DNA of 62,468 nucleotides, counting the filler, from Chrysochromulina tobinii (Eukaryota), in assembly GCA_001275005.1 (NCBI GenBank). It is 3 parts of 3 records of this genome, joined end to end, with 100 filler letters (N's around TTAATTAATTAA, not from the genome) between each part and the next. Parts side by side here need not be neighbours in the genome. Positions count along the whole stretch, not along the records: positions 12,562 to 31,174 come from JWZX01001331.1; positions 31,275 to 62,468 come from JWZX01001332.1; 1 more part is not named here. One strand, written 5' to 3'. Positions 3,411-52,085 of the stretch are shown piece after piece. Each line of letters starts with the position of its first letter. The first letter of the stretch is position 1. The notes beneath the pieces are model-generated. The model worked only from the letters and a program-made list of their open reading frames with translations, was not told where the DNA came from and ran no database searches. The position numbers and the translations under genes were made by a program.

Positions 3411-3426
3411 ACAAGTCAACTAGTCC

Positions 3427-12561: not shown

Positions 12562-15500
12562 GCAGCGGCGACCGATGCGCCCGAGACGGCGTCGCTTCCG
12601 AGCGGCGGCGCCGCCCCGAGCGCCACTGACGAACCCCAGACCAGCCGGGTGACGAAACCGAAGGGCGACGAAACCGACGGCGCCGAGGGAGGGCGACTGA
12701 CGAAACCCAAGGGCGGCGAAACCGACGGCGCCAAGGGAGGGCGGCTGACGAAACCGAAGCGGAGCGCCGCCGACGGAGGGGCAGTTGGCGGGATGGACAA
12801 GTCCATATTAGGCAAGTCCACCGACACGTCTTTGGGGACCGCCGATGCCGCCGCTGCCGCCGCTAGTACGGCCGCGAGCATCAGCGACGCCACCGCCGCC
12901 AGGAACGTCAGTAACGCCATCGCCAGCGCGAACAAGACGCGCCGTAGCGGCGGCAACGCCGTCGCGGGCGCCACGGGTCGCGTCGTCGCGGGCGCCACGG
13001 GCCGCGTCGTCCCCACAGGCCGCGACAGTCGCGCTCACGACGACGCTCCGCCGCCCGCGGTCGTGGCGGCGCGCCGTCGCGGGCTCCTCGGCTGGCTGCT
13101 TGGCTGCTGCTTCCCCGACGGGTCTGGCACCGAGGAGGAGGAGAGGAGCGCCGTAGCGGGCACGCTGCCGCTGCCAGCCAGTGCGTCCACCACCGGCGCC
13201 GTATCGGGCGCCACTGCCTCGGGGGCCGCGGCGCTCCGTTCACAGTGCGCTCTTCACACCCGGACCTAACTCACCCCAACAGGCCTCCCTCGCATGCAAG
13301 CGCTCACCACGACGCCCCATCTCCCCCCCTGCCCCCCTGCGTGCGCGCAGGCGCGACGCGCTGCAGGCCGAGTGCCGTGCCTTGCGTGCCGAGCTCGCCG
13401 CCGCCGCCGCCGCCCGGGACAGCGCGCAGCCCAGCACCGCTGGTGGGGGAGGTGCCCAGGACAGCGCCCGCGCCCGTGCGAGCGCCGCCGCAGCAGCCGC
13501 AGTGAGCGCCGCCCTGGAGGAGCAGGTGAGTGTCGTTAATTGCCTCTCCTGATGGCCTCTTCTGATGGCCTCTGATTGCACCTCTGATTGCGCCTCTGAT
13601 TGCGCCTCTGATTGCGCCTCTGATCGAGCATCGCCCTGGTGGAGCAGGTGGCGGCGGCCGAGGCGGCGGCGGCGGCGGCGCAGGCGGCGGCGACGGCGCA
13701 CGAGGCGCAAAGCAAGGTGAGTCTCGTCAATTGCCTCTGCAGTGCCTGTTCTGATGGCCACTGAGTAGGCGTCTCTGACGAAACTCTGCGGACGGATTGC
13801 AGGAGCTCCAGCGCGAGCTGATGGCCTCTGATTGCCTCCCTGACGAATCTCGGACGAATCCCTGACGAATCTCGGACGAATCTCGGACGAATCTCGGACG
13901 AAATGGCAGGAGCTCCAGCGCGAGCTCACGGCGGCGGCGACGGCGAGGGCGGCCGAGGCGGCGGCGACGGCGAAGGCGGCCGAGGCGGTGGCTGCGCTCG
14001 ACGATGCAGCGGCCGAGGTACGATCGCCTGCATGCACGTGCTCATCACGGCGCCGCGTCCGTCGTTCACGCCGCCTTCCTCGCTCGTTCACACCCCGTGC
14101 TCCTCGTTCACAGGTGCGCTCGCTACGTGAGCAGCTCGACGCGGCGGCGAGTGCGGCGGCGGCGGCGGCGCTCACGACGGCGCGCGAGTGGCAGGCGAAG
14201 CTCGACGCTCACGACGGCGCGAGCGCCGAGGCGGCAGCGGCGCTCGAGACGGCGCTCCAAAACAGGCAGGCGGCGCTCGAGACGGCGCTCGAGGCGGCGA
14301 CGGCTCGCGCTGGAGCGCTGGCGGAGGACGTCGACCGTTTGAGCGCCGAGTTGAGCGCTGCGAAGGCGGCCCTCGTCGCGGCGGAGCGTGCGGCCGAGGC
14401 GCAGCAGAAGGCGAGCACTCTGATGGCCTCTGATGACCTCTGAGGACCTCTGATGACCTCTGATTGCCTCGGATTGCCTCTGCTGATGACCTCTGAGGAT
14501 GGCTGATGGCCTCCCTCATCAGGCAAGCACTCTCGAGCTCGCCGCCGCTTGATGGCCTTTGATTGCCTCACTAATTAGATGGATTGCCTCCCTCATCAGG
14601 CAAGCACTCTCGAGCTCGCCGCCGCGAACGAGAGAGCCGCGATGCACGCGGCGGCAAGCGCCGAGTTGAGCGCCGACCTCGCGAGCCTCCAGGCGCGTGT
14701 GCGTGCGGCCGAGGCGGCGCAGGCGGCGGCGCAGGCGGCGGCCGAGGCGGCGTCGACGACGGCGGCGAGGGCGGCGGCCGAGGCGACGGAGGCGACGGAG
14801 GCGCTCGCGGCCGCGCATCGAGCGACGGCGCAGGCTGAAGCGACCCTTGCGACGGCCGAGGCGCAGGTGAGTGTCGTTAATTGCCTCTTCTGATGGCCTC
14901 TTCTGATTGCGTCTCTGATTGAGCGCCGCCCTGGTGGAGCAGGTGGCGGCGGCCGAGGCGGCGGCGAGTGGCGCGGCGGCGGCGCTCGCGACGGCGCTCG
15001 ACGAGCAGGCCGAGCAGCTCGATGCGAAGGATGCGGTGCTCGCTTTGTACAAGGGGCGGCTTGAGGACGTTACGGAAGCGTCGCGCCGGGCACTCGACGC
15101 TGCGGGCGCACGTGCGCGCGCGAACGGCCGCGTCGCGTTTGGGGTACGCTGATTGCCACTGATGACCGCTGATGACCTCTGATGACACCTCTGATGACAC
15201 CTCCGAGGACCTCTGATGACACCTCTGATGACACCTCTGATGACACCTCTGATGGCCGCTGATGACCGCTGATGACCGCTGATGACCTCTGATGGACGGT
15301 GATGACCTCTCTTCCCACAGGTGCTCACTCAGTCAGTGGCACTACCGGCAATGCTGTTGACACGCTCGAGCACGGGTCCGGCAGCGCCGCCGTGGGCACC
15401 CCACCCGCTGCAGGGTTGGTGGATGGCTGGTCTCCAATCGAGCGGTCTCAAGCGCCACAGGACGCGCGCAACCACGTCGGCGGCGCGCGCGGCGGTCGCG

Positions 15501-17751
15501 CTGCTGCCCCCGATGTGCGCGGCGGCGAAGGCGACTTCGTACGAGGCATGTGCGCTTCTGGTCGCGGCGGAGGCGGCGGAGGCGGAGGTGCGATCTGCGC
15601 GCGAGCTCGCGAGCTCGGCGATGAAGGCGCGGGGCGAGCGTGCGCGAGATCGAGAGGAGATCGCGAGGGTGGCGCGGCAGCTGGCGACCATGGACGCGCA
15701 GGTGAGTGCATTTTGAAGGCCTCTTGAAGGCCTCTCGATGACCTCTTGATTACCTCTCGATTGCCCATTGATTGCCCATCGAGTGTTGATGTGGCATCCA
15801 TGGATGCGCAGGTGAGTCTCGTTAATTGCCTCTTGATGACCTCTTGTTTGCCCATTGATTGCGTGTTGATGTGGCATCCATGGATGCGCAGGAGGCGGCT
15901 GTGGAACCGATGGGGCTTGCGGACGCGGGCGACGAAACTGACGAAACCACACCTCCCGCGGCTGTGGAACCGGAGGGGCTTGCGGACGCGGGCGACGAAA
16001 CTGACGAAACCAGCGGCGTGGTGGAAGCCCCAGCAACGAAACCGACGAAACTGACGGAGGAGTGCGGGGCGGGCGCGCCCGCTGCCGATGGCGCCGTGAT
16101 GGGCGCGGTCGAGGGCGCCGTGATGGCGGACGCACTCAGCGGGGAGGCGGAGGGCGCCGTGATTGCGGACGCACTCAGGGAGGAGGCGGATGCGGCGCTG
16201 TCACGTCTGTTGATGGGCGATCACGTGGCCGAGATCAGCGGCGAGATTGTGGCCGAGATCAGCGGCGACCATGTGGCCGAGATCAGCGATGATAATGTAG
16301 CCGAGGTCGCACCTGCCGACTGGGGCTTCAATGATGCTGCTCAACACGACGTCAAGGACGCTGCTCAACACGACGCCAAGGACGCTGCGTCGAGTATCAA
16401 TGAGGACGCAGCTGCCCCTGTCGACCGTGCTCAGCACGACGCTGCTCAACACGACGCCAACGACGCTGCTCAACACGACGCCAACGGTCCCGCCAGTGCG
16501 GCCGGCGATTCTGCCGGTGGCTCGTTCCAAACTAGGAGCTGGCCGCCCGCCCCTAATTTGGAACGAGCCGCCGACACGCTATCCAAGGCGGAGGCGGAGG
16601 CGCCGCCGCCACCTCCGCCGCCGCCAGCGCCGCCACCGCCCTCGCCGCCCTCTCCGCCGCCGCCCTCGCCGCACGCGGTCATGAGTGATTACGGATCGCC
16701 TTCGTTCCGGGAAGAGGCGACGAAACATTTGACGAATTCCCTCGACGCCCTGGCGCACGGCTGGGCGGCGCTCGACACGGCGCTCGCGGCCCAGCCGGCC
16801 ACGTGGCAGTTGCCGAATGCAGCCGCTGATTGCATGCGGCGCGCGAGCGAGCAGCACGCGGCTCTGCTCGCGTGCTTGGGTCGCTCGCTCCGGGTGCAGG
16901 TACGCTGATTGCATCTGATGACCCGCCCTTGCATGCATGTGCTCACCACGGCGCGATGCGGCGGGTAAGCTGATTGCATCTGATGACCTGCACTTGCATG
17001 CACGTGCTCACCACGGCGCCCGGTCTCTCCCCACGCTCCGGGTGCCCTTGCATGCATATGCTCACCACGGCGCCTCGTCTCCCCCCACGCTCCGGGTGCC
17101 CTTGCATGCATATGCTCACCACGGCGCCTCGTCTCCCCCCACGCTCCCGGTGCAGGCGGAGGCTGCGGCGGTGGCGGCGGAGGTGGAGGCGGAGGTGGCG
17201 CAGGTGGCGGCGGCGGTGGCAGGTGGTGGCGCGGGCGTGGGCGGCGCGGCGGGCAAGGGCATGGCATGGGCAGGTGCAGGCTTGCTGGTGGCGACGTGTG
17301 CTCAGGTTGCCTCGGAGGCTCTCACGCAGGTGAGTCTCGTTAATGGCCTCTTGAGTGCCTCTGATTGCTCAGGTTGCTTCGGAGGCTCTCACGCAGGTGA
17401 GTCTCGTTAATGGCCTCTTGAGTGCCTCTGATTGCCAGGCGATGCCGAGTACCACAGATGACCATTGCCAGGCGATGCCGAGTACCACTGATGACCACTG
17501 ATCATCACTGATGACCACTGATGACCACTGATGACCGCTGATGATGACTGATGATGGCTGATGATGGCTGATGTTGACTGATGACCTCTGATGACCACTG
17601 ATGATGGCTCGAGTGGCAGGCGCTGGCCCTCTGCGTGCCATCTGGAGCCGCGACTCAGTCTGTAGCAGCAGGGCCGTCGCCTCCGGCAAATGCGGCGGGT
17701 GGGGCGGGCGGCGGTCTTGGCGGACTCTTCTTCTTTCCGCCGAGACAATGA
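12562..17751 (+). CDS. 5'-truncated 11-exon gene for a large Ala/Glu-rich coiled-coil protein with a hydrophobic segment near the C-terminus
   Basis: Hand-built exons <12562-13244, 13351-13525, 13648-13716, 13910-14017, 14114-14410, 14600-14866, 14943-15143, 15321-15701, 15892-16899, 17156-17329, 17620-17751 (TGA); all junctions are GT/GC..AG and keep frame (first intron phase 2, the rest phase 0). Confidence 0.75.
13526..17619 (+). mobile_element. Cluster of repeat-filled introns, most flanked by duplications (introner-like insertions)
   Basis: Introns 13526-13647, 13717-13909, 14018-14113, 14411-14599, 14867-14942, 15144-15320, 15702-15891, 16900-17155, 17330-17619 share stereotyped ends (GTGAGT(G/C)TCGTTAAT(T/G)GCCTC, GTACGCTGATTGC, GCCTCCCTCATCAG) and CTGAT(G/T)-type fillers or the TGCATGCA..GCTCACCACGGCG cassette. 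Confidence 0.7.
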
Positions 17752-17913
17752 CCGAGATAATGAGTGGGATTGCGCGCGGGAGAGAGAGCAAGCTCATAAA
17801 GTCGTGTATCGGAACATGCGCATACTGAGGCTGTAGTCTGGGTTCGCGGGTTCATTGTTTTTTTTGACCCGCTCGCGACGGCGCTTACGCTCACGGTCGC
17901 GTGAAATATTTAA

Positions 17914-18342
17914 ATGGGGCAAGCCGCCCGGATCGAACTTGACGCCCCGCCGCCGGTGGTCACCACATGGTCCTTTTGGGCGGGCAACTTTGGCTGTGGC
18001 AGCAGCATACAGTGCACGAATTGCACCGTCGCACAGGCGCTCGTCAAGTGCGGCGCGATGCCAATCTACCTCGACACGTATGGCACCAACGTGACCTGCA
18101 ACCGCACAGAGCCAAGTCCAGGCCCGCCACAAAGCTTTCATGGCGAGTTCTCGTGCTGCTCTGAACTCCTCGGGCCAACGACATTCAATGTGAGCAACTG
18201 CTTCTTCTGCCCGGGCGACGCTGACTGCGTGGAGAGCGCGGAGGATGCGACGGACGCGTCAACGGCCGTGGCGGCCACGGCGCCACGTGGCCTATTCTTG
18301 GCCATCCCCTCTTCATTGGAGAGCGTCCCCGCCATAGCTTAG
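17914..18342 (+). CDS. Small Cys-rich hypothetical protein (142 aa)
   Basis: ATG ORF with about 10 Cys and several N-x-S/T sites, suggesting a disulfide-bonded extracellular domain; no family recognised. Confidence 0.45.
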   Translation: MGQAARIELDAPPPVVTTWSFWAGNFGCGSSIQCTNCTVAQALVKCGAMPIYLDTYGTNVTCNRTEPSPGPPQSFHGEFSCCSELLGPTTFNVSNCFFCPGDADCVESAEDATDASTAVAATAPRGLFLAIPSSLESVPAIA

Positions 18343-18688
18343 CTTTGTTTGGTCTGATCGCGGCGGTGTGCTTTTCGTAAATCTCATTTCGCTGTGACGC
18401 CGAGCGGACCGAGCAGCTCTGACTCGGGCCGCGGCCCGCGTAACAGGCCCGCGCCGCTCTAGCACTACATCTGTTCAATCTAAAATAAAATTAGCACAGT
18501 CAGCGGCTTACATACTATGGAAAAACCATGCGAGCGCTCCAATGAGCTTGCTGACTCACTCCTGGAGCCATGAAAAGTAATTTGTGTCGAGAACGAGATC
18601 CAGCCGCCCTGACCCCTGTTCGTGCACTGCGCACTGGCCCCCTGCACAGCTCTTCGTGCCCGCCTACGATGCCACCCGAGCCCTCTCC

Positions 18689-19332
18689 CTACGAGGCCGC
18701 CGCCTTCTCGACCATCTCCGCTAGCTCGCCGTTCTGGTACATCTCGATCAGCAGATCGCAACCGCCCACGAACTCGCCGTCGATGTAGCACTGCGGAATG
18801 GTCGGCCAGTTGGAATGCTTCTTGATCCCCTCACGCACCTGGCGGGCGACGAGACCGACGAAACCGGGTGATGCGCGCGCTCGAGGAGAGTATGCAGCAG
18901 GCGCACGCCGGCGCCGGGCGCTCGCGGGGGCGGGGGCGGGGAGGGGATGGCGGCGCACGTCATTGTCGGCCAGCACGTTAAATGTCTGAAAGTCGCAGCC
19001 GGCGGACTCGGTCACGGCCTTGAGGATCATCACGGCTGTGTTGGAGAAGCCACACTGCGGTTGGATCTTGTCACCTTTCATGAAGAGCAGCACCTGTGGC
19101 AAGGAGCGCGAACCGATAGTCATCGATGTCGACGAACGAGTGAGGCGGCCGTGCGGACACGCCGACTGACCTTGTTGTCAGCAATCATCTTCTCGATGCG
19201 ATCCTTGGTCATAGCCTCGTTGAGCGATGGCGGTGGGCTGCGGCGCCGCACTGACGAGGCCGGAGTCTGGGGCAGCTGCAGCGCCGCCGCCGAGGAGAGC
19301 GCAAGGACGAGCATCGACGCGACGGCCTTCAT
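18689..19332 (-). CDS. Monothiol (CGFS) glutaredoxin, probably plastid-targeted; 3 exons
   Basis: Exons 19332-19171, 19093-18959, 18838-18689 give a signal peptide MKAVASMLVLALSSAAA, then VLLFMKG..PQCGFS, SNWPTIPQ and GEFVGGCD. Confidence 0.92.
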
Positions 19333-19429
19333 TTCACAGTCACTCCCTTCTTCCCTACCGTAGAAATTAACGATCTCACTCCTCTGATCAACTCTGCTCG
19401 CACTCCGCTCGCACTCGGCACTACCATAC

Positions 19430-20580
19430 ATGTACGGCGGCCGCACGAACGACGAGGCTACGCGCTGGGCGTGCCTCGACTCCTCGCCCGAGGTGATCAT
19501 GAGTGGCTTCACGATGAAGCCGCTCAGTCACGAGGAGTTCAACCTCCTCTTCGAGGTGCGCCTGGTGCGCTCCCATACTCTCCACGAGTACACCCGCCTG
19601 TTTGAGGGTGAGCTCATTCGCCTGTGCATGCGCACGCACCACGGCGACGAGGAGCAGCAAAAGCGTTACAAGCAGCTTGACAAGGCGGTCAGAAACGCCA
19701 AGTCCAACTCCAAGAGGCGGAAAGCGCGCGACGAGGGCTACGAGGAGTCGGCGCGCGGCAAGTCCAACGTCAAGAGGCCGACAGCTGGTGCGGAGGGCTA
19801 CGAGGAGTCGGCGCGCGGCAAGATATCGGCCGCTCTGGAGGCGCAGCGCCTCCAGCGTGATCTCGAAGGCCGTGCACGGCGCGGCGCCTCATACGGCGCT
19901 ACACACGCCTTCGTTCTTGCCGAAACTTCTGTGATCATCAAGGCAGAGGAGCTGGCAAGGCGCTACAACCACACCAAACTTGCGCCAACTATGAGCAGGG
20001 CTCCAAGAGCTCCAAGTTCCATGACACGTCTCTCCGGGCCCAAGGAGGAGGAGGAGATGATCTGATGCGACTCGTGTGCACCCGGGCGGCAGCGCCCGTG
20101 ATCGAGCAGGAGGCGGTCGAGCAGGTCGAGCAGGACGAGCAGGCTGAGCAGGAGGCGGCCGACACCGAGGTGGACACCGAGGTGGACGAGGACGAGGTGG
20201 AGCAGGAGGTGGCGGCGGCCGCTGCGCCACCTGCCCCGGCACCCTACGTGACCAGCCCGTTCATGCAGGCGCTCTACGACGACATCTTCGGCGCGGACGG
20301 TGAGAGTGGGGAGTCGTGAGAGTGGGTGAGAGTGGGGAGTCGTGAGAGTGGGGTCGGAGTAGGGCGCTGCCGCGGGGGAAAGCAAGTGGTCGACCTCACT
20401 CTCAGTGACGACGCCGCTCCACCACCTCACCATCATCTCCGCCGCCCGCGCCCGCGTCCTCCTGCTCCGCAACGGAGCCTCCATCCTCACCACGAGCACG
20501 ACGAGGAAATCGTCAATGAGCCTGACAAAGAAGAGCGGGGAACCTGGCCCGGAGAAGGGGGCAGGGGAGGCTGGCCTTGA
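19430..20580 (+). other. Hypothetical gene or decayed gene: ORF 19430-20065 abutting an acidic ORF 20065-20299 that can splice (20300-20362) to 20363-20580
   Basis: TGATG stop/start overlap at 20063-20067; internal 30-nt direct repeat (EGYEESARGK twice); GT..AG intron made of GTGAGAGTGGG repeats keeps frame. Confidence 0.35.
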
Positions 20581-21719
20581 CAGTCTGACCTCGACAGACC
20601 TCTCAGAGTGCGCGGGGGCGGAAGCGGAGGAGGGGGCGGGAGGGTGTCTGAAACCATCTCGAAGTATCTGTGCATTCTGTACAACAACGAGGTTGAACGA
20701 GGTTGACTGTTGCAATGTTCATGGCTGGTTCATGGTTGAGCTTCTCGAGTGTGCATCACCAGGGTTAGGTCTGACTTACCCGCGGACTCAGCCACTCTGA
20801 AGCACTCCGCCATGCATGAGATACTCAGGGTAACTCGCACCATCCTACCAGGCGCGCGTGCATGGGCTTACGGACACTTTGCCACACAGGGAGCCAAGCC
20901 AAGTGGTGGTAAAAAACCACACCGGAAGGCGCCAGGGCTGACTGAGCCCACACTACGCACTCTACATGCGCGTGCACAGATGCTTTGAAAGGGCGACATT
21001 CAACGCGGCCATCGCGCTCCCAAATGCCAACCTGCCAGAGTCCGAATGGGACCACATCCGCTTCGAAGCGCTCATGAAGGCAGCGGAACAGCTCGACCCC
21101 CACGCGCACCACGTGGGTATGGTCATGGCATACTCAAGGACCATCCCCGCCGCCCGCGCCCGCGTCCTCCTCCGCAACGGAGCCTCCATCCTCACCACGA
21201 GCACGACGAGGAAATCGTCAATCCAATCATTCCTAATCCCGGCAATTCCTAATCCAAGGGCGAGAATGTGAGTGCGCCTGGCCACGAGTGGGGCCCATAC
21301 GTGTATGCTCGGCCGCCTCGCCCTTGGCGTGCAGCTCGCGTGCGATCAAGAGCGGAGTGGGGTGGCCGGGTGCCGGGATTAGGGCCTTGGCCGCGGAATG
21401 CTCGCGAGGCGTGCGGCGAGGGCTTCCTTCACCTACACCAACTCCGACCTGTTCCGGTGCCTCGCGAGCGTGCGCTTCTCCGCTTCACACGCTCATCGAC
21501 GCAAAACGTTCCTGGGCAGCCCGGCTACAAACCCCGCACCTACTAAGATTTCCCCCCCTTCCCCCCCCTTCCCCCCCTTCCCCCCCCTCCAAATTTGCAT
21601 GCGGCTGTGCACCAAAACACGCCCCCCGTCGACTTCCGTTCACGCGCAAATTCCCAGATGAACTCCGCGTCGCCTCCCCATCGACCCATCCCGACGAGCC
21701 GCTCGACCCGCCCACCGCG

Positions 21720-21836
21720 TGCTGCGGTCGTGAATTCCGCCTGCGCCGCGCCCTCGAAGCGCACGCGCGCAGCCACGGCGCGTGCGGCAAATCTGGGTGT
21801 ACCTTCGCCGGCAGCCGCGCCGTCCTTCGGCTGCAC
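21720..21836 (+). pseudogene. Fragment of a tandem C2H2-like zinc-finger region (NUFIP1-like spacing)
   Basis: CCGREFRLRRALEAHARSHGACGKSGCTFAGSRAVLRLH; no intact start or continuation. Confidence 0.4.
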
Positions 21837-24005
21837 GGTGCTTGGCCTCGTTCTCGCTGTCACCGCGACGCGCGCAATCCACGTCGAGGTTGATGCGGTG
21901 CAGCTGGGCGTCACCGTGCACACCGATGACCCGCCGCTGCACCGCATCAATCCGCTCTACGTGGGCTGCCACAGCGACAGCGGCTTCACGCACCAGCGCG
22001 GGCGGCGAGCCGACGTACGCGGCGCTGCACAACCGCGGGCTGGGGAACGAGGGGCTTTACTTTGAGGAAGCCAAGCCGTACGAGGGCTTCCTCTTCCGCC
22101 AAATGCAACGGCAGCGCCGCCACGCTCGTCGCGCGGCTCGAGAGCCTTGGCGGCAGGGTGCTCTGATGACGCCCTAATGGCGCCCTAATGACGCCCTAAT
22201 GACGCCCTGATGGCGGCAGTGTGCTCGCAGAGCACACCTTCGAGTTGCTCTCGACGGACTGCGGCACGTGGACGAAGCTCGACGTTCCCCGCGCGCCGTG
22301 CATGCAAGTGCTCACCACGGCGCGGAATGCGGCACGTGGACGAAGCTCGACGTTGCCCGCGCGCCGTGCATGCCAGTGCTCACCACGGCGCGGAATGCGG
22401 CACGTGGACGAAGCTCGACGTTGCCCGCGCGCCGTGCATGCCAGTGCTCACCACGGCGCCCGCCCCTCCTGCACAGGCACGTGGACGAAGCTCGACTTTG
22501 CCCTCGCGCCCAAGACGGGCCCGAGCAAGGCCACTCGTGCGTTCGGTGTGGCGGACGGTTTACCATCGGCCTGACCACTGTGGGGGGTGTGCTCCTCGAT
22601 TTCGTCGTCCTGCAGCCTGGCCCGTGGGGTAGGCTCACTTCAGTTGATGGCGCGCCCCGGCCGGTGCGCAGATGGCCTCCCTGATGGCCTCCCTGATGAC
22701 CTCCCCGATGGCCTCCCTGATGACCTCCCTGATGGCCTCCCTGATTAACGTCGATGGCACGCCCTTGCCGGAGCGCAAACCAAATCATGGTTGATGCCAT
22801 CTGATCGCCTCTGATCGCCTCTGATCGCCTCTGATCGCCTCTGATGACCTCTGATGACCCCTGATGACCTTTGATGGCCTCTGAGGATGGCCGATCGCCT
22901 CCCTCATCAGGTACGCAAGCCAGTCGCCGACGCGCTGCGTGCCATGGGTACAGCCACGCTACGCTGCGTGTGGGTGGCTCCTTCGCCTCCGTCACCGGCT
23001 GGCCGGATGGGGGCGGCTTCACACCGGATGAGGGCTTCACACCGGATGGAGGCTTCACACCGGATGGAGGCTTCACACCGGATGGAGGCTTCACACCGGA
23101 TGGAGGCTTCACACCGGATGGGGGCGGCTTCACACCGGACTCGACCGTCTCGGGTACGTACTACCAGTGGCAGCTGCGAGTGCCTCTTCCACAGCTTTGA
23201 AGCCCAAGCTTTGAACTTGAGTGCCTTGTGCGAGCGATTGAGATGATGTCGGCAAACCAAATAATAATCTATCCCACTGACGGACTGCAAAGTCTTTGTG
23301 ATAGACGAACACAGCTCGCCACTGATCACCGCTCATGGCGCCTTGATGCCCTGATGATGCCCTGATGATGCCTGATGACGCCCTAATGACGCCCTGATGA
23401 CGCCCTGATGACGCCCTGATGACGCTCTGATGACGCCCTGATGATGCCCGCTTACTCCTGTAACGCTCTGATTGCGCGCGCGCCCGTCCTCCCAAATATG
23501 GTAGCGGTGGACCGGCCCGATTTGGAAGCGTCCGAGCGTGGTGTGGAATGCGTACCCAAATATGGTGACTCGTACTCGCTCATTGGGGGCTGGGGGCCAT
23601 TTAATTTCATCGACATGTGCGCGGCCCTGGGCATCGAACCGCCTCTGATGACCTCTGATGGGCTCTGATGACCACTGATGACCTCTGATGGGCTCTGATG
23701 GGCTCTAATGGCCTCCCTCATTAGGTGGCAGCGATGGAAGCGCGTTGCCTCCCTCGATCTGAACGGCACGCTGCGCTACATCTTCCCCGACAATGGCGGA
23801 CTCAATGCAATCAGAGGCAATCAGAGGCAATCAGAGGCAATCAGAGACAATTGCGGACTCAATGCGGACGACGTGATGAAGGCCAAAGCGCTCGGCATCG
23901 ACGCTCAGATTGCGGCCGAGATTCACGTGGGAGCCGGCGGAGGGCTCGACGAGGCTGCGCACCTCTTCGCCCGCCACCCCGACTTCCACCAATCTGCGGT
24001 CAACC
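21830..24005 (+). pseudogene. Decayed GH51-like (alpha-L-arabinofuranosidase-type) glycoside hydrolase
   Basis: Colinear fragments in shifting frames: INPLYVGCHSDSGFTHQ, NRGLGNEGLYFE, FVVLQPGPWGR, LRVGGSF, YYQWQ, RWTGPIWKRPS, LIGGWGPFNFIDMCAALGIEP, IHVGAGGG; several deletions, frameshifts and repeat insertions. Confidence 0.55.
23003..23139 (+). repeat. 18-bp coding minisatellite (GGCTTCACACCGGATGGA)n
   Basis: About 7 tandem units encoding GFTPDG. Confidence 0.9.
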
Positions 24006-24417
24006 GACGGCGAGGTTGACATGTACAGGCTCCTCTTTCCGAGGGAGGTTAGAGGTAAAGCCGGGATATAATCATTGTTGAGCACGGTGATGGGATCTTC
24101 TGCCTGTACCACCAGAATTACGCCATGCTCGACTTCATTTTAATAAATAGCGCCGAGTTGGGACGAGTCGGTGAGGACGATCTGCCTTGGTCTCAGTTCG
24201 ATTCAACCTAAATCGGGTCACACAAATCACAATTCTAGGTGTTCCCTAATTGGTTAATGTGTCGGCTTGCATGCAACTGTCTCTCAGGAGACGGGTAGGC
24301 ACCGATATGGCGCTACACTTTTATTAAGGACTGGGTCCGAAAAGCGAATCCTTCCGTTCGGACATGACGCTACCATGGATCGCTCTACGCAACTCGCGCG
24401 TGCTTAGTTTGATAGTT

Positions 24418-26313
24418 TCAGAATCCGACGCCTGCACCTTGATCCGCGGCTGAATCTTGTGACGGTGGAAGGACCTCTTCAGCCGCTACCTGGCTCCGCT
24501 TGGGCGGTGGCTTCTTCTTCGGCAGGGGCGGAGCCTCGAGCGTCGTCTCGGTTGCTGAGGCGGGCTCGGCGGATGACGCTGACTCCGTCGCCGCCTCCAC
24601 CCCGAGCACTCCCACCGCCTTCGGCTTCTTAGGTGGCGGCGGCTTCTTCGTTTTTGCTGGCGCCTCGGCCTCAGGCTCGGCTGTCCGGTCGGCTCCTGGC
24701 GCGGCTACCGCTTCGTCCGTCGCCTTGGCACGCTTTGGAGGGGGCGGTTTCTTTGGTGGCGGCGCTGCCGCCGCGTCCGCTTCCGCCGCCCCGTGCGCCG
24801 CCTCCGACTTGGCTCTTTTGGGTGGAGGAGCTCGCTTCGGTGGAACAGCCTCCGCATTCACCGCGTCCACCGCGCCGGCCAGATTCGTGCGCTTTGGCGG
24901 CGGCGCCCGCTTGGGCGGCGGCACCCCCACCCCGTCACTGCGAATCTGAAGCATCTTGATTTCCTGCTGTCCAAGACCCGATGTCAGAGACTCTGGACCG
25001 GTCAGATGGGGAGATGTGATCTCCGCCGCGCCGCCCGACACCACCGACTTGGAGCGTTTGGGGGGCGGCGGAAGGCGCTTTGGGGGCGCCGCCACTGCAT
25101 TCACCGCATTCAACGCGCCCACCGTGGCCGCCGATTTCGTGCGCTTTGGCGGAGGCGGCCTTCTGGGAGGCGGAGGTGCCGAGCCATCATCCGCTGCTCT
25201 CGGCGACAACGCGCCTACCGCCCGGATCTGCCGCAGTTTCGCCTCTTCTCGACCGAGAATCTCGCTCGCAGATGCCGCAGGATGCGCCATTGGCATGTCA
25301 ACAGCAGCGCCCGAGGGCGCATACATCCACGAGAATCGCGGCGGACGACGCGTCGTCTGGGCGCCCGCGAGATCGCGTTTGAGATCGCGTTTGGGGCACG
25401 CGAGGCTCTTGCCGTCGCCGACCCTTCTCATGAGCTCATCGACGCTCGGCACGCCCACGACCTTGACGTGCTTTCGAATGTCCGTGTCGAGCTTTCGTTC
25501 ATGCCCAGCGAGGTCCATCCGGGCTCCGAGGGACCACGTTGCTGGCCGGTGGCGATACATGCAGTTGCAGAAGTAGAAGCACAGCACCAGGAACAGCACG
25601 CTAAGCACGATGGCCGCCACGGCGCCCGCGACCAAGTAGCTGGAGCCAAACCGCGACCAAGTAGCTGGTGGAAGTGAAGGCGGCGATGGAGGCGACGGCG
25701 CGGCAGGCAGCGCATACACCTCCAGCTCCGCGATCGTGAGTGGCAGGGCGCTCCGCTGCACCACGGTCACAAAGCGTCCCCACGTGCCAGCAAAGCAGTC
25801 CGCTCGCAGGACGCCACGATGCAAGGGCGGCGGCGACGGCGACGGTGCTGATGCACATGCCGTCGATGGCAGCACGCAGGGTCTGGCACTGATGGCAGTA
25901 TCGCCGTGGGCATGGCTGCTCACCCATATTTCCATGCAGCTCGCGGTGTAGAAGGCATCTGGCCGGTTGTACAGCAGCACCGATCCAATTTGTGAGCCAT
26001 CGGGCACCTCCACTGACATCCATTTACTGCTCGTGCCAGATGAGGCACCGAAACTGTCCCAGTCCGAGTCGATCGCCTTCTCAGCTGGTTGACTAGGCGT
26101 GAGCGCGCTGCTCGCAGCACTCTCACGAGTGAGCACCTGCAGCGGGAGTGGGTACAACTCCGCAGAGGCCCACACAGTCAGGTTGCCTCCGCGCCAAGGG
26201 CGGATGGAGTTGAGAAACCCCTCCATCCGACCACAGAACCGTCTACAAGAAGAGAGAGAGGCACCTTCAACCGCCGCTGATGGCGTGTGAACGTGAACTC
26301 GACGGAGGGACAA
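24418..26313 (-). CDS. Single-pass membrane protein: galactose-binding-like (F5/8 or fucolectin-type) domain, TM helix, cytosolic PPPK(R/K) repeats
   Basis: AEKAIDSD..KWMSVEV..IGSVLLYNR..GRFVTV..LTIAELEVY, then the hydrophobic LVAGAVAAIVLSVLFLVLCFYFC and many PPPK(R/K) motifs; 5' end uncertain. Confidence 0.65.
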   Translation of the reverse strand: MSLRRVHVHTPSAAVEGASLSSCRRFCGRMEGFLNSIRPWRGGNLTVWASAELYPLPLQVLTRESAASSALTPSQPAEKAIDSDWDSFGASSGTSSKWMSVEVPDGSQIGSVLLYNRPDAFYTASCMEIWVSSHAHGDTAISARPCVLPSTACASAPSPSPPPLHRGVLRADCFAGTWGRFVTVVQRSALPLTIAELEVYALPAAPSPPSPPSLPPATWSRFGSSYLVAGAVAAIVLSVLFLVLCFYFCNCMYRHRPATWSLGARMDLAGHERKLDTDIRKHVKVVGVPSVDELMRRVGDGKSLACPKRDLKRDLAGAQTTRRPPRFSWMYAPSGAAVDMPMAHPAASASEILGREEAKLRQIRAVGALSPRAADDGSAPPPPRRPPPPKRTKSAATVGALNAVNAVAAPPKRLPPPPKRSKSVVSGGAAEITSPHLTGPESLTSGLGQQEIKMLQIRSDGVGVPPPKRAPPPKRTNLAGAVDAVNAEAVPPKRAPPPKRAKSEAAHGAAEADAAAAPPPKKPPPPKRAKATDEAVAAPGADRTAEPEAEAPAKTKKPPPPKKPKAVGVLGVEAATESASSAEPASATETTLEAPPLPKKKPPPKRSQVAAEEVLPPSQDSAADQGAGVGF

Positions 26314-26589
26314 CCTACAGCTCAGTTACTGCCTGCTCAGAATACACGGGTGTGTGTGAACTGGCTGTTATACTCGGCCGCCTACTACATTCTTTGGATC
26401 TCGGAATCTATGGTACCCGGTAGGGCACGCAGGAAGGCAGGATTCTTCTCAGGAGATGAGGTTGAGGAGGGCAAGGAGTAGGGGCGTGGGCCTCCAGATA
26501 TGGGGTTCGTTGAGGAAGTCTGTGAATAGGTCCAGAGTTGACTTGACTTGACTTGAACTTGACTAGGCTTCCAAATTTGGACAGAGCGC

Positions 26590-28695
26590 ATGTCTGCACT
26601 TATACCGAATGAGCTTGAGCTTGTCGAGCAGCCTGCGTCGGGATTTGGGCTCTTAAATCGCGCGAATAATTCGGAACGCCTCGCCTTCGGATACCAGGCG
26701 CCCTCAGCGTGCTACTTTACGGATGAAACGATCGAGCTGCCTGGCGGGCTCGTGTGCCGCAAGCCACCGCCCTTTGCACAACCAAAGGCGCGACTGCCTT
26801 TGCTCACATCGGCGACCGGCGCCAAGCCGCTGCTCAGCGCAGCGCTGGCGCGGAAGCACGCGTCATCGGACAATATGCTCATCGTGACGTACGTGAATCG
26901 CGTGCGCGTCGACTTTGCACTTGCATGGGTGCGCCACCTCACGGCCTTGAAGCAGCCGCACCACCTCGTGGCCGCGCTGGACGGGGACGCGCTCGCAGCC
27001 CTCGAGGCCCACGGTGTGGCCACTTACCTTTTGAACTACTCGATGCTCGGCGGCGACGACACGGGGTGGGGAACGCAAGCGTTCCGCAAGCTTGGGCTTG
27101 TCAAGGTTCAAATGGTCCTTGACTTGGCGCGCACTGGCGTCGACACCCTCACCGTCGACGCGGACGCCATCATCCTGCGCGACCCGCTGCCATACTTTCG
27201 CCGGTACCCGCAGGCCGACGTGCTCATGAGCTCAGACCACCTCAATGCCACCAACGGCTATGATGACGACGGGCTCGAGAGCGAGGATGCCTTTGGCAGC
27301 GCGTTCAACATTGGGTTCATCTTCATTCGTAGCCGCGCGGTCGAATTCGTCCAAGCGTGGCGCGACGCATGCTTTGAGCATGCGAGCTCCTGGGACCAGC
27401 AGCTGTTCGCCGACGTGCTGCGCCGCGACGACGGCGGCGAGGCCGGCAGCGCCTCGGGGCCACGAACCGTCCGACGTACCGACCGTTTGGTACCGATGAG
27501 ATTCCGCACGAGCGTGGGCATGCCAGTCCTCGCGGGCGTATTGCCTGTGGCGCTCTTCGCTTCTGGACACACGTACTTCGTGCAGCGGATGGCGCACAGG
27601 ATGCGCACGACGCCCTACATGGTGCACGCGACCTTCCAATACGGTGGTTCGCAAGGCAAGCGCCATCGGCTCCGTGAGGCAATGATATGGGAGGATGAGC
27701 CTGAGTACTACACGACGCGGATGCTCTCCTATGAAGCGGACGTGCCATCAGAGCTCGTGTACCCGGCAGCACGGGCGACGCGCCGTCTGCACGCGCGACG
27801 CGCCGGCAGCACGCCCGATGCGCCGGTGTGCAACCAGAGCCAAGGCGAGCCCATGACCGTCGAGGATCACTTTCGGCTCGTGAACCACCAGCTGCGTCAG
27901 CTACGCAACGCGCTCGCGCTAGCTCAGGCGCTCGGCCGCGTGCTCATCTTACCGCGGCTCGTGTGTGGGCTGGACCGATGGTGGGCGCCGCACAAGGGCA
28001 ACATCCCGGGTGCGGACACGCGGCTGCCGCTGCTCGAGTGCCCTGCGGACCACGTCATTGACCTTGAGGCGATGGGCAAGCCCGAGGCTTTGCTCCGCGA
28101 GCACAGCATCCTGTGCAACCCGCGCATGCCCGCTGCCGCCCTGCGCGAGGCCGCACACGAGAGGCTCCCGGTGAGGCTCCCGGGTGTCGGCTGGACGTTT
28201 GGCTCCGGAGAGGAGGGCAACGGGGGGACGAGCGGCGGCGGCAGCAGCAACGATGGCGAGGGCATGGCGACACGCATCAGCGACCTCCTCTACCGACAGG
28301 GCACGCACGACGAGCTCTATGCCCAAGCCCAGCACCGGCGGCTCGCCGTTGCCAAGCTCCTCGGGCGCCTGGACCAGCAGTACGCGAAGACGGCCGTGCT
28401 CAAAGTCTCCGGCCCGCTGCCCGACTATCGCGATCTGCTGGGCGGCGAGGGTCGCTCTGGGGATGCGGAAGACGAGGACGCTGACACCGTCGTGCGCGCG
28501 CACGCGGGTGCGAACGCGGTCGGCCCATTTGAGAGGACGGTGGAGTCGTGGGCGTCGCTGTGGTGCTGTAAGAATCCGCCGGGCGGCAAAGGGGCCGGGC
28601 ACATATGGTATGACTTCCTTTGGGACGTGGTGCCGCACCACGATCGGCACCGGCGGATCTGGAAGGAACCGTGGAAGCCAATCATGGGTCCCTGA
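26590..28695 (+). CDS. Nucleotide-diphospho-sugar transferase (GT77), similar to arabinosyltransferase XEG113
   Basis: DxD motif (VDADAIILRDP), WDQQLF, HATFQYGGSQGKRHRLREAM, HFRLVNHQL..LILPRLVCGLDRWW, CPADHVID, WCC..GHIWYD. Confidence 0.8.
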   Translation: MSALIPNELELVEQPASGFGLLNRANNSERLAFGYQAPSACYFTDETIELPGGLVCRKPPPFAQPKARLPLLTSATGAKPLLSAALARKHASSDNMLIVTYVNRVRVDFALAWVRHLTALKQPHHLVAALDGDALAALEAHGVATYLLNYSMLGGDDTGWGTQAFRKLGLVKVQMVLDLARTGVDTLTVDADAIILRDPLPYFRRYPQADVLMSSDHLNATNGYDDDGLESEDAFGSAFNIGFIFIRSRAVEFVQAWRDACFEHASSWDQQLFADVLRRDDGGEAGSASGPRTVRRTDRLVPMRFRTSVGMPVLAGVLPVALFASGHTYFVQRMAHRMRTTPYMVHATFQYGGSQGKRHRLREAMIWEDEPEYYTTRMLSYEADVPSELVYPAARATRRLHARRAGSTPDAPVCNQSQGEPMTVEDHFRLVNHQLRQLRNALALAQALGRVLILPRLVCGLDRWWAPHKGNIPGADTRLPLLECPADHVIDLEAMGKPEALLREHSILCNPRMPAAALREAAHERLPVRLPGVGWTFGSGEEGNGGTSGGGSSNDGEGMATRISDLLYRQGTHDELYAQAQHRRLAVAKLLGRLDQQYAKTAVLKVSGPLPDYRDLLGGEGRSGDAEDEDADTVVRAHAGANAVGPFERTVESWASLWCCKNPPGGKGAGHIWYDFLWDVVPHHDRHRRIWKEPWKPIMGP

Positions 28696-29105
28696 AGGGC
28701 TCGATCATTACGGCCAGATCACGGCGCTCGAGTGGCGCAGTGCCAGTGCTCGACACGTTTCCGACGTAGCGCGCTAGCCGCCCGGCGGCGCGGCGGGGTG
28801 CGGGGACGCGACACCGCAGTCCGCGCGCCGCTGCGCGGCTCGGCGCTCGCGGGTTAGGGGTGTTCGCTCCCCACCCGGACCCTTTACGCCCCGAGCTTTA
28901 ATTTTTTTCAGGTTGACTTAGGGCCCATCCAACCTACACCTGGAGCGTTGGGAATTGAATGCGATTCACGTCATAAAAAAGCGACCTGCTCATAGGAACA
29001 GCGACGATCCCTACGGTGACGCGTGTGAGTTCCCCGTGGGAAAAGCATGCCCATCCGGGACAGGGGTGAGCCTATAGGGGTACACAGCAACACAGGGATC
29101 ACGCG

Positions 29106-30908
29106 CTAGTCGGCGAACGCGTGGAACGCGTCCTTGATCTCCTGGTTGAGCGCCTTGAAGTGCGCCACGAGCTTGGCCTCGCCGTCCCCGGGGAGCTGGA
29201 ACTTCTGCGAGACGATCTTGTAGATGGTGTCGTTCATGGTGGTCTTGATGCGATGGCACGTGATCTTGTTCTCGGCGGTCGAGTTCTCGATCGCCTTCTT
29301 GGCGAGATTATAGAACTCGACGATGTTGAGCATCATCCAGACTGACTTGTAAAAGGGGCACACTCGATCGTACTCGGAGAAGCCGTTCTGCTGCAGGTAG
29401 TCATCCTTGATGATCTTGGCGACCTCGAGGATGAGCTTGTCGCTCTCAGCGAGCGAGTCCTTGCCGACGAGCTGCACGATCTCGGTCAGGTCGTCCTCGG
29501 TCTGCAGGATCTCCTTGCACACGGTGCGCATGGGCGGGAACTGAGGGTAGTTGACCTCGTACCACGGGTCCAGAGCACGCAGGTACTTTGAGTACGAGAG
29601 CAGCCAGTGGAGCGAAGGGAAGTGCTTGCGCTGGGCGAGCTTCTTGTCAAGCCCCCAGAAGACCTGCACAATGCCCAGGGTGGCGGCGCACACGGGGTCC
29701 GAGAAGTCGCCACCGGGGGGCGAGACGGCGCCGACGATGGAGATGGAGCCGATGCGTTCCGGCGTGCCCATCAGAGTGGCCTTGCCCGAGCGTTCGTAGA
29801 AGGAGGCGAGGCGGGCGCCGAGGTAGGCGGGGTAGCCCGAATCGGCGGGCATCTCGGCCAGACGGCCAGAGATCTCACGCAGCGCCTCAGCCCAGCGCGA
29901 GGTCGAGTCGGCCATCATGGATGCGTCCATGCCCATGTCGCGCATGTACTCGGCCATCGTGATGCCCGTATAAATGGAGGCCTCGCGGGCGGCGACGGGC
30001 ATGTTCGAGGTGTTCGCAACGAGGGTGGTGCGCTTCATGATCGACTCTTGCTTGCCGTTCACCTCCATCGTCAGCTCAGGGAAGTCCTTGAGCACCTCCG
30101 CCATCTCGTTGCCACGCTCGCCGCAGCCGACGTAAATGATGCAATCAGAATTGGAGTACTTGGACAAGGCCTGCGAGATGACGGTCTTGCCGCAGCCAAA
30201 GGCGCCGGGCACGGCGCAGGTGCCGCCGAGCACCGACGGGAAGAGCGCGTCGATGACCCGCTGGCCGGTCAGCAGCGGCGCGTCGCCCGCAAGCTTCTCA
30301 GTGACGGGGCGCGGGGTGCGCACGGGCCAGAACTGCTGCATCGTGTGCTGCGTCTCTTTGCCCTCGAACATGGTCTTCATGACGCACGACTCGATGGTGT
30401 ACGAGCCCTTGGGGGCCACGTAGGTGACCTTGCCCGCCGTGCCGTGCTTGAGCATGATCTTGTGCAGGATGATGTTGTTCTCCTGGACCTCGCCGATGAT
30501 GTCGCCGCCGGACACGACGTCGCCGACCTTGACGCCGGTTGGCACAAAGAGCCAGTCCTTGTCGTTGTCGAGGGCAGCGGCGGAGATGCCGCGGGGAATG
30601 TAGATGGACTGGGTGAGCTCGGCGATCTTCTCGAGCGGGCGCTGAATACCGTCGTAGATGCGACCCATGCAGCCAGGGCCAAGCTGCAGCGAAAGCGGCT
30701 GGCCCGTGCAGGTGACGGGGTCGCCCACGGTCAGACCGGAGGTCTCCTCGTACACCTGGATGGTAGCGCGGTCCTCCTCAAGACGGATGATCTCGCCCAC
30801 AAGGCTGTTGTGGCCGACGCGCACGAGCTCGTACATCGCCGCGCCGAGCATATTATCGGCGATAACGACGGGGCCGGAGACGGAGTACACACCACCGACG
30901 CGCGCCAT
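29106..30908 (-). CDS. ATP6V1A: V-type H+-ATPase catalytic subunit A (600 aa, no intein); probable 5'-UTR intron 30920-31013
   Basis: VSGPVV, Walker [54 protein letters not shown]. Confidence 0.97.
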
Positions 30909-31174
30909 GGCTGCTTGTTCTGCGCAAGGGATGGTGTGCCAGGGAGGGTCTCAGCGAGTGTCGGAGGCAACCAGGCCACGGCACGCGCAGGCGTCGCGCA
31001 GAGACTGACTCACGAAGAGGACACTCTCGCAACAAGGTGCTGAGTGTGAATGTGATTACAAAACACCAATCCAGCTTTTCCGGCCACGGGGATGCGCTAT
31101 GTCTTCGGCGCTCGCTACTCTCCAACAGAGACGACGCTGGCTAACTCGGCAACGCCGCTGCCTGGACCTGATCC

Positions 31175-31274
31175 NNNNNNNNNNNNNNNNNNNNNNNNNN
31201 NNNNNNNNNNNNNNNNNNTTAATTAATTAANNNNNNNNNNNNNNNNNNNNNNNNNNNNNNNNNNNNNNNNNNNN
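31175..31274. other. Artificial scaffold gap or linker
   Basis: N44 + TTAATTAATTAA + N44. Confidence 0.97.
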
Positions 31275-32102: not shown

Positions 32103-32275
32103 GTCCTCGGACTTCTCGGTCGTTAGGTTCGCTGGAGAAGGAGCCGCAAACGGTTTCGCGGACGCTACATGTATCTTGCAAATGGACCGTTGGTTAAGGG
32201 CGCCCCCGTTTTTCGCGACTCCCGCTACATGTTCAAAGTCACGCCCGGAACAGCGCCAGGCCGTTCGCAAAAGAA

Positions 32276-47317: not shown

Positions 47318-47994
47318 GAACGTGCAATCAAGTCCAAGTCATGTCAAGTCAAGCTGTCAAGGCAAAGGCAGCGGTAGTGCGGTACCGTTGCATACACCTC
47401 AATTCCTTATACTCGAGCCGCATGATGCGAGTGCGCAGAGAGTGAGGGCGCAGAGCGACCGAGGGCCGGCAGCCGTGGTGCCGTGCGGGCGCAGCAAGTG
47501 GCTCCAGACGGTGGGCCACAAGCCCCGCGACCAAGCGATGCAAGTCCCGCCCAAGTCAGAGCTAAATTAGCTAAAGTACAGCTGCATACGCTATTACTGA
47601 TTACAGTATAGATATCACACCCGGTACCTCACACCATGATGGGTCCTCCCAGGGGCAGGGGGTGCGCCAGGGGAGAGCACAGTCAGCAGAGGCGACGAGG
47701 GCGGCGCGAGCGGGTGCCGGTTTGGGCGCCTTAACTCATATAACTTGTGTCGCGCAGGCTTACTGTTAGACCTTCACCTTCGTAAGTTGCACATCATAAC
47801 AAAATCAAACAATGGCGGAACCGGAAGGGAGCAAGGGACCTACGGGGGGATGGGAATGCAATGAAGGCTGACCCCCGCGCGACTCGCGTAGTGAGGACCT
47901 GTTCTGACGGCGCGGTTCCTCGTCCCATTCGCATTCCATACATGTATTATCGATAACATCGTATTCCATACATGATATTATCGGATCCATGAAA

Positions 47995-48663: not shown

Positions 48664-48865
48664 CGAAAATTCGTGCTCGCGTTCATGTTAATACACACAA
48701 CACGTAACGAGCACAGCCAATGGTTGAAATCGAAAACCCAACACCGGACCGGCGTACGAACGGATGCGGTTAGCACTTGCTCGGGGACTTTTGGACCCCC
48801 CTTGTCATCTGTGAACAGCAGCAACAGCCTTCTCGATCTCATGCCGGAAAGTGCTCGGAACACAC

Positions 48866-50095: not shown

Positions 50096-50146
<51 letters not shown>

Positions 50147-50475
50147 TGGGTGTTGTGGCGCTGGCCGCACGCGATCCGCCCGGCGACGAGCTTGCGCGCC
50201 AAAGGTACGCTCAGAGGCACGAGTGCTGGGCGGGCGTGGTCGCCGCGCTCGCGGCGGACGAGGGCCATATGGCGGACAGCGAGGGAAACGGTGGCGCGCT
50301 GGCGGCCCGATGGCGCGAAGGGCTGCGTGCGTGGCTACGCGTGCGGCCCTTGCACCAGGAGGAGGCTGCGGAGCTCGAGGCCATCCGTGCGCGAGGCCGG
50401 GCGGTGCGCGCATTGCAGGCGGCTGAGCCACCGCCCTGGCGCACGCGCGAGGATTGGAAGGCGGATCTTTGGTAA
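48866..50475 (+). CDS. YqgE/AlgH (DUF179) domain protein, one intron
   Basis: Intron 49476-49567 (GT..AG) yields GLVINAPT; also PGDVLVSHP, HSGG, GLYYGGD and FVKGRYDWRPAELRGELELGEW. Confidence 0.75.
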
Positions 50476-50754
50476 CTTTCGGTAGCCGCGGACGGCCGGG
50501 CATGCGCCACTAGCTCGGGGGGGTCACAATTAGGATTCCTAGTCCTTTTTAGTCGACACACTTTCGAGGCAGCGTACTTTTCGAGCTTTCACTGCTCGTC
50601 TCGTCTCTTGACATCTACAGATCTACTACAGTTGCGCGGTAAGACTTCACAAACCCGCACGTCTACCTGTGCACTTTACAATGTACAAAGGACGCCGTGT
50701 GACGGGCTGACGCGTCCCGACTCCGGTTAACTCCGGTTAGCTCCACCACATGAC

Positions 50755-52052
50755 TCACCTCATCTCCCACGGCGGTGTCGCTTCCCACGCCCACCACCCG
50801 CCGCCACCGACACCACCTTCCAACGCGTGCACCGTGGCGCCTCCGACCGCCGCCGAGAGATCCTCAGCGCTCGAACCACACACGGGCTTTGAGCAGCAGA
50901 CGCGGAGGGCGCCCTGCAGCACGACGCGGCGAGGAGCGCTGCCAGAGCGACCAGGTGCCCACCCATCGCCATCCGTCGGGGTCGCCTCCTTGATCTCGGC
51001 CTCGATCTCGGCCTTGATCTCGGCCCAGCGCAGCCGCCCAGCGCGCCATCGCATGGACACGCGCCAACCGCCGCGCGCCCGCAGCCCGCTGACGTCGCCG
51101 TCCGTCCAGGCGGGCGGCAGCGCAGGGAGCAGCCTCAGATCGCACATGGCGGCGGGAGCGGCCGCAGCGGCGGGCGTGTTGGGTGTGAGCGGGCGCGAGT
51201 GGAGGAGCATCTCGGCGACGCCCGAGACGACGCCGCCGTTGGCGTCGAGCTGGAAGACCCCGCTGCCTGGCGTGGCCGACGTCGCGCGCGTTGCGCACGG
51301 CGCGCATTTGCCACCACCTACCGCTCGCTTGCCGACGAGCTTTGGGTGTAGCCCCAGGAGCGCATCGGAGGCGAACTCGTGCAGCGTGTACCGTAGCGCC
51401 GCGTGCGCCCTCCCGCCATCAAAGAGACGCGCCCACAGGCTCACGGCCCACGCGGCCGACCAGCCCACATGCGCACCGCCCGCGCGCAGCCGGCGCTCAA
51501 TCGAGCGCCTCGCCGCCCGCGCGTGTGTCGGATGCTCGAGCCCATCGAGCGTGTGGCCCGGGTGCAGCGCGTACAGGTGTGAAAAGTGGCGATGCCCTTC
51601 GTCCGCTGCTGGCTGTGCGTCACCCGTGCCCCACTCAGCGAGCTCGCCTAGTGAGGGAAGCAGTCGCAGCTCATCAGAGGCAATCAGAAAAGTCATCAGC
51701 GGCACTCCCCATTCAGCGAGCTCGCCTGCCCACGAGAGCTGCGGCAGGCCACGGTTAGGGTTCGGGTTCGGGTTCGGGTTAGGGTTAGCTCGCCTGCCGA
51801 CGAGAGCTGCGGTAGGCCGCCACCGGGCAGCCGCGGCAGCAGCGCCGCCATGCGTGCACCTAGAGCTCGGTCTACCGGCCCGAGGCTCCCAAGGGCCTCG
51901 AGAAAGTGAACTGCCACCACCACGGCGCGTATGAGGTGGGCAATCACGCCCAGGTCGATCGCCACGTCGTACGCGAGGATGCGCGTCGCGCTCCCGTTGT
52001 GCCCATCGAGGTACGCGTTCTCGGGCGAGTGCGACGGGCCCCAGCGCAACCG

Positions 52053-52085
<33 letters not shown>

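Follow-up and report, generated by a model that had tools for sequence, protein, structure and literature searches.

Tandem duplication of splice junctions as a probable source of back-to-back introns in Chrysochromulina tobinii

The analysed stretch of the Chrysochromulina tobinii genome (62,468 nt of NCBI GenBank assembly GCA_001275005.1, here called the window) contains four sites at which the acceptor AG of one short intron is followed directly by the donor of the next, leaving an exon of zero length between them. The four AG/GY junctions were confirmed where the original prediction had located them: junction A at 14522/14523 (CTCCCTCATCAG/GCAAGC; the slash marks the junction), B at 15811/15812 (ATGGATGCGCAG/GTGAGT) and C at 17396/17397 (GCTCTCACGCAG/GTGAGT) on the plus strand, and D at 51726/51725 (TCTCGTGGGCAG/GCGAGC) on the minus strand. 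The prediction had overlooked that every internal junction copies the gene's own junction; all four are part of 26-72 nt copies of an exon end or exon start of the same gene, and are therefore not independently evolved ratchet points. It is fairly probable that a short tandem duplication copied the gene's own junction and that the resulting doubled intron is removed in one step. Counted over both strands, the window has 15 occurrences of the motif CAG/GYRAG, nine of which fall at the four sites or in two sibling introns; by these counts, the AG/GY stacks are not due to chance.

Stacked introns at four sites

The window consists of three contigs (1-12461, 12562-31175 and 31275-62468) joined by artificial N spacers, and sites A to C therefore have no physical linkage to site D. 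The N runs occupy 12462-12561 and 31176-31274, each with TTAATTAATTAA in its centre. The sequencing runs included DNA (X1) and RNA (X12, X13 and X16), all used as contigs only, with an RNA depth of about 2-3 at site D; a marine run, X15, gave no coverage of site D.

Site D interrupts a gene on the minus strand (50755..54494) for a GH95 alpha-L-fucosidase-like protein with the domains PF14498, PF22124 and PF21307; with both units removed, the protein has 1197 amino acids and aligns without insertions to all 10 of the homologues aligned, from 56 found. The first unit, D1 (51726..51793, minus strand, 68 nt), is composed of GCGAGCT, a 34-nt telomere-like spacer (AACCCT/AACCCG) and a 27-nt copy of the upstream exon end; the duplicated segment, 27 nt of upstream exon plus GCGAGCT (34 nt, 31/34 identical), flanks the spacer, and the AG of D1 is the exon's own AG. 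The second unit, D2 (51648..51725, minus strand, 78 nt), opens with a 19-nt copy of the downstream exon start (20/21 counting the AG) and continues with CTGATG filler and a family-like acceptor. A second case of telomere-like filler was found neither elsewhere in the window nor in any of the 137 metagenome loci surveyed below, and the D1 spacer suggests a separate, repair-type event. The proposal of two independent hits on the GH95 gene thus stays plausible, as the fillers differ, but D1 is a duplicated exon end and not a second inserted intron.

The stack is present in DNA and absent from spliced RNA at this site. One X1 contig covers 51150-52042 without a single difference or gap, and there is one DNA path at site D; an X13 RNA contig joins 51794 to 51647, is fully spliced and skips all 146 nt, and regular splicing at site D is thus unaffected by the stack. 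D2 and the internal junction are represented in another X13 contig, whose base at 51731 is the one specific to D1 and identifies it as unspliced RNA or DNA. The fit of one X16 contig stops at 51794 and leaves 28 letters beyond unplaced, and this contig is uninformative. Retention of D1 would shift the reading frame; D2 retained alone would leave the frame open and free of stops, adding 26 residues that occur in none of the 10 aligned homologues.

Sites A to C lie in one gene on the plus strand (12562..17751), which encodes an Ala/Glu-rich, low-complexity, coiled-coil-like protein and whose 5' end lies beyond the contig edge. Removing both units at each site leaves a continuous reading frame, and the absence of the units from mRNA is deduced here from the frame only; the claim that both units have to be removed needs qualifying at site D, where D2 alone is in frame. 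RNA over sites A to C is fragmentary, partly unspliced and uninformative on their splicing; run contigs were placed on 12562-24400 at 88% likeness, and the filler repeats swamped this placement. Spliced RNA contigs of X12 and X13 at a glutaredoxin-like gene (18512-19331) show that both runs contain true transcripts of the organism.

At site A, unit A1 (14411..14522, plus strand, 112 nt) has a GC donor, CTGATG filler and the family acceptor GCCTCCCTCATCAG; the first 11 nt of this outer donor copy the downstream exon start (12/13 counting the AG). Unit A2 (14523..14599, plus strand, 77 nt) consists of a 26-nt copy of the downstream exon start, filler and a second copy of the acceptor, and 40 nt of acceptor plus exon start are duplicated exactly (14509-14548 and 14586-14625, 40/40). 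At site B, a copy of the upstream exon end that has diverged (23/26 with the donor hexamer counted) closes unit B1 (15702..15811, plus strand, 110 nt), and the final 29 nt of unit B2 (15812..15891, plus strand, 80 nt) match those of B1 (29/29); an X1 contig (15266-15835) covers B1 with 0 differences and extends 24 nt beyond junction B. Unit C1 (17330..17396, plus strand, 67 nt) combines 36 nt of intron start with a 31-nt copy of the upstream exon end, and represents one period of a 67-nt tandem repeat at 17299-17439 (69/72 identical); unit C2 (17397..17619, plus strand, 223 nt) contains a donor copy, a 33-nt duplicate, a (ACCACTGATG)n filler and an acceptor. Tandem copies that run across an exon-intron boundary and include splice signals are found at all four sites; A, B and C are tandem duplications and not independent hits, and splice junctions acting as hot spots of re-insertion, as had been suggested, are not needed.

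Family introns in metagenome loci

The stacks of the window belong to a wider population. A single scan, in which the family acceptor had to be followed by GY, covered 2 of the 64 parts of a metagenome collection (about 5000 stored stretches are estimated for the whole collection) and returned 137 loci. These derive from several assemblies, either of one and the same organism or of related ones; chance matches were removed by requiring filler, and no overlap was found between the window and these loci. After 8 duplicate loci were dropped, the 129 loci kept out of 137 yielded 172 family introns, which have the acceptor motif and filler words in common across many genes and are variable at their 5' ends. 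Internal family acceptors occur in 41 of the 172, a lower bound that misses at least three stacks seen by eye (L088, L114 and L128); the stacks reach up to seven units. The internal AG is followed by GT or GC in 27 of the 41 stacks, by a non-donor in 18 and by both in four, the figure of 27 being inflated since the search pattern itself required GY. Among introns outside the search-pattern matches, 12 of 51 have internal acceptors, and 38 of 51 true acceptors are followed by GT or GC.

Exon-derived copies are frequent in unstacked introns as well. An upstream copy of the exon start with a score of at least 10 was found in 38 of the 125 single family introns that have enough flank, against 0-2 per shuffle in 20 shuffled pairings; the copies are variable in length (10-45 nt), and the 38 introns that carry them measure 50-178 nt. 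The mirror case, a duplication on the upstream side, is seen at B, C, D1, L028 and L056. Near-identical units make up the stacks of L076 (68/67 nt), L107 (68 nt), L030 (44 nt) and L105 (69 nt), with five or more units in L076 and L107 and seven in L030. The stack of L019 reappears unchanged in L092, which belongs to a separate assembly (100% over 704 nt); the two strains represented by L005 and L007 differ by 80 nt in the length of one filler, and no difference in unit number was found among the four overlapping locus pairs compared. Stacked introns are a real, lineage-wide feature.

Excision and origin of the stacks

The original prediction had offered recursive splicing or skipping of the stack as one block; the evidence leans to block skipping, and recursion, although conceivable, finds no support. 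It is likely that the doubled intron is excised in a single step, from the outer donor to the outer acceptor. A full internal acceptor is followed by a non-donor in 18 of the 41 stacks, although the scan favoured GY. In the WS/DGAT gene (PF03007) of L030, an intron of 340 nt (1662-2001; 76 nt plus six units of 44 nt) has a tandem series of seven complete acceptors, with GG behind six of them, and the outer-to-outer join is in frame. Frameshifting pseudo-exons lie between the internal acceptor and donor in L056 (31 nt), L127 (20 nt) and L054 (20 nt). In the prolyl-tRNA synthetase gene of L009, an intron on the minus strand (3003-3078) consists of two identical 38-nt units, each shorter than all measured single introns (50-178 nt, n = 38), and retention of one unit would introduce a stop. 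As judged from their sequences, the L030, pseudo-exon and L009 introns indicate that internal splice sites can probably be skipped. An enrichment of donors at internal junctions was not found (7/12 against 38/51 at true acceptors, Fisher p = 0.30; a small sample), nor were unit lengths preferentially divisible by three (11 of 30 hand-listed units, p = 0.70). Units C1 and D1 each have a CAG that follows their last branch-like motif and precedes the junction AG, 24 nt ahead of the junction in C1 and 13 nt ahead in D1; the competing CAG of D1 is 16 nt from the branch-like motif, a CTAAC located 29 nt before 51726, the same spacing as at A1, where the motif stands 16 nt before 14522.

The stacks probably originated as follows. 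In many introns of this lineage, a filler of 10-12 nt repeats is preceded by a copy (10-45 nt) of the downstream exon start or followed by a copy of the upstream exon end; misalignment of these exon-derived direct repeats by slippage or unequal exchange could duplicate, in exact register, the whole intron or its acceptor together with the exon start. GT or GC stands behind about three quarters of the acceptors (38/51), so that most such copies would read AG/GY without selection, and since exons often end in CAG before the donor, duplications on the upstream side would give the mirror case. Repeat-flanked introns would in this manner expand like minisatellites; duplications landing in introns presumably survive, and those landing in exons do not. 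The branch-site consensus is YTRAY; the filler words CTGAT and CTAAC both fit it, which may be a reason why both fillers are tolerated.

Several points weigh against this combination of duplication and one-step removal. A product lacking both units is also expected from recursive splicing, and with contigs only and an RNA depth of about 2-3, splicing intermediates would be missed. Units A1 (112 nt) and B1 (110 nt) have a donor, a branch-like motif and no competing YAG, a complete set of signals with which they appear spliceable alone; the acceptor of B1 is identical to the acceptor that must be used. The loci L030, L056, L127, L054 and L009 were judged from DNA alone, and the control genes are assumed to be functional because their frames are intact; the donor-enrichment test is small, with 12 introns compared against 51. 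Alleles or strains in which the stacks have fewer units did not come to light at the four sites, for which no systematic empty-site search was made. Finally, the D1 filler is unique among the loci, and site D thus requires a second, different event.

An alternative retains the duplication origin and proposes that units with donor, branch site and acceptor are excised singly, starting from the 5' or from the 3' unit; as the units have no exon between them, either order would regenerate the missing site. Stepwise removal is possible at sites A and B, and it would be favoured by the sizes of A1, A2, B1, B2 and D2, which fall within the single-intron range of 50-178 nt, by the lack of a competing YAG in A1 and B1, by GT or GC behind the internal AG in 27 of the 41 stacks, and by the zero-length exon used in a 336-nt Schizosaccharomyces pombe intron (10.1101/226894). 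Yet no recursive intermediate was seen among the seven RNA contigs at the GH95 gene (five of X13, two of X16; depth 2-3), and the X13 contig that crosses the internal junction is unspliced, as its unit-1 base at 51731 indicates; in addition, donor-less stacks are tolerated, donors are not enriched internally, the count of 27 is inflated by the GY in the search pattern, and C1 and D1 carry an earlier CAG. As a general account, stepwise removal is therefore doubtful. More speculative still is its extended form, in which short introns are self-amplifying tandem units (up to seven) and AG/GY units are removed one by one in either order; if true, each genome would hold many natural zero-length-exon sites beside donor-less stacks that are jumped in one step.

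Two further explanations dispense with duplication of a resident intron. A mobile, introner-like intron could re-insert at AG/GY targets, each unit being an independent insertion with its own target-site duplication. The acceptor motif and filler are indeed common to many genes, 38 of 125 single introns carry target-like copies, the fillers of D1 and D2 differ in type and those of A1 and A2 in length, and introners with 4-bp duplications are reported from Chrysochromulina in a preprint (10.1101/2022.06.06.494994). However, the units are identical or nearly so in most stacks (L076, L107, L030, L105), the B and C units carry upstream exon copies that are unexpected for a free element, and the exon copies vary between 10 and 45 nt instead of showing a fixed 4-bp target duplication; re-insertion is accordingly improbable. 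Short-read assembly artefacts come to mind since the window joins three contigs across N spacers and its fillers are highly repetitive, and run X1 may be the window's own source; but one X1 contig crosses site D without a difference, a contig of an RNA run also contains the internal junction, substitutions distinguish the copies at B, C and D, and the identical stack of L019 and L092 comes from two separate assemblies, so that an artefact is scarcely credible. Replitrons were also considered as a source of variable duplications and set aside; for Chrysochromulina tobinii they are known only from a single-locus report, and nothing connects them with these introns (PMC10288648).

If short tandem duplication and one-step removal account for the stacks, zero-length-exon structures can arise without selection for recursive splicing, wherever an intron flanked by exon copies duplicates in register. 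The genome offers matched natural pairs, AG/GY stacks against AG/GG, AG/GA or pseudo-exon stacks of 2-7 units and 38-121 nt, which allow a direct test of whether the nearest or the farthest acceptor is chosen when short introns are spliced; L009, with its 38-nt units, is a good test of minimal intron length. The 10-45 nt exon copies around repeat filler are a candidate footprint of intron birth. Stacks can also mislead gene callers, as in the GH95 gene, where D2 reads as 26 extra residues.

Other introns of the window and comparison with known systems

The host gene of sites A to C contains further introns with duplicated edges. A control intron (13717..13909, plus strand) has an internal acceptor copy at 13802 that is followed by GA and not by a donor; acceptor and exon start are duplicated 21/21, and splicing to this AG would retain 107 nt, with a shift of the frame. 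A single intron (13526..13647, plus strand) terminates in a copy of the upstream exon end (22/25). Its paralog at 14867-14942 ends with a copy of the exon end that precedes 13526-13647, which indicates that the intron was copied within the gene together with its downstream exon. The intron at 16901-17157 shows a second filler type (TGCATGCANGTGCTCACCACGGCGC, a 54-nt tandem present three times) and two donor-like starts, GTACGC and GTAAGC; the TGCATGCANGTGCTCACCACGGCGC motif recurs at 14019-14114, at 22264-22476 and in several metagenome loci. In a neighbouring gene, the control intron 22264..22476 (plus strand) begins with a copy of the downstream exon start (20/20), and a 68-nt tandem present three times repeats its donor with no AG in front.

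Elsewhere in the window, 7636-9179 and 9398-11001 are tandem intronless transporter-like genes, the first apparently frameshifted near 8160, and a glycosidase-like gene at 21800-24000, which is possibly decaying, has numerous introns with filler, a tandem array of 18-nt repeats (23015-23139) and several places where the frame appears broken. A stretch of about 70 nt is duplicated at 20450-20520 and 21150-21220, and a second X1 DNA contig differs at many positions over 20560-20930; this is a repeat or mobile element. Arrays of (AAGTC)n or (GACTT)n lie near gene ends at 3421-3475, 26540-26565, 47330-47352, 55955-55975 and 59636-59720. The window has a G+C content of 57-71%, and its GT-AG and GC-AG introns are filled with repeats of 10-12 nt. 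Intronic repeats of 10-11 bp are reportedly described in the Emiliania genome paper. The genome of C. tobin has a G+C content of 63.4%, and the main text of its description mentions introns once and does not include these repeats (PMC4580454). No description of stacked introns in haptophytes was found in the literature searched, which left most subscription journals outside its scope.

Together with intron gain by duplication, the amphioxus 'mirages' (PMC3087553) form the closest parallel: in the mirages as in the present introns, an exon edge and its splice signal are duplicated head to tail inside the intron, AG/GT is retained in many copies and normal splicing continues, here at site D; copy number is unstable in the mirages and may be so here. 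In contrast to the mirages, the short introns described here are already flanked by exon-derived direct repeats, and the copy is therefore often a whole intron in register, which yields the zero-length exon; stacks occur in roughly one in four of the family introns sampled, and filler of the CTGATG type (10-12 nt) or of a telomere-like kind serves as the spacer. Intron gain through the tandem duplication of AGGT-containing segments (PMC3265369) and the dual-specific splice sites in UBC (PMC10809524) likewise involve a duplicated AG/GY, one copy of which provides the donor and the other the acceptor; here, repeat filler stands between the copies, often with an acceptor of its own, and the duplicated exon part measures 7-45 nt.

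The ratchet points of Drosophila (PMC8605326) and the recursive site in S. pombe SPNCRNA.445 (10.1101/226894) share with the present sites an acceptor that has a donor directly behind it, within sequence that the mRNA lacks. The notion that such points are known mainly from very long animal introns needs widening, since the S. pombe intron measures 336 nt. The use of the Drosophila and S. pombe sites is backed by biochemical or genetic evidence, and the S. pombe site is conserved across species, whereas the junctions described here are recent copies, their donors are not enriched, and no intermediate appeared at an RNA depth of 2-3. Fungal stwintrons (PMC8469720, PMC9024468) also combine more than one set of splice signals in a short complex intron; in these, a signal of the outer intron is split by the inner one, which forces two steps, whereas the units at sites A to D abut and leave the outer donor and acceptor intact. 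The introners of Chrysochromulina sp. (10.1101/2022.06.06.494994) resemble the present family in having sequence common across genes and one splice site derived from a duplicated target. As a caveat, the supplements of the preprint may include the family seen here. The introners are described as generating 4-bp duplications, carrying the 5' splice site and co-opting the 3' site; the present family mostly carries the 3' site and takes its GT or GC donor from the 10-45 nt copy.

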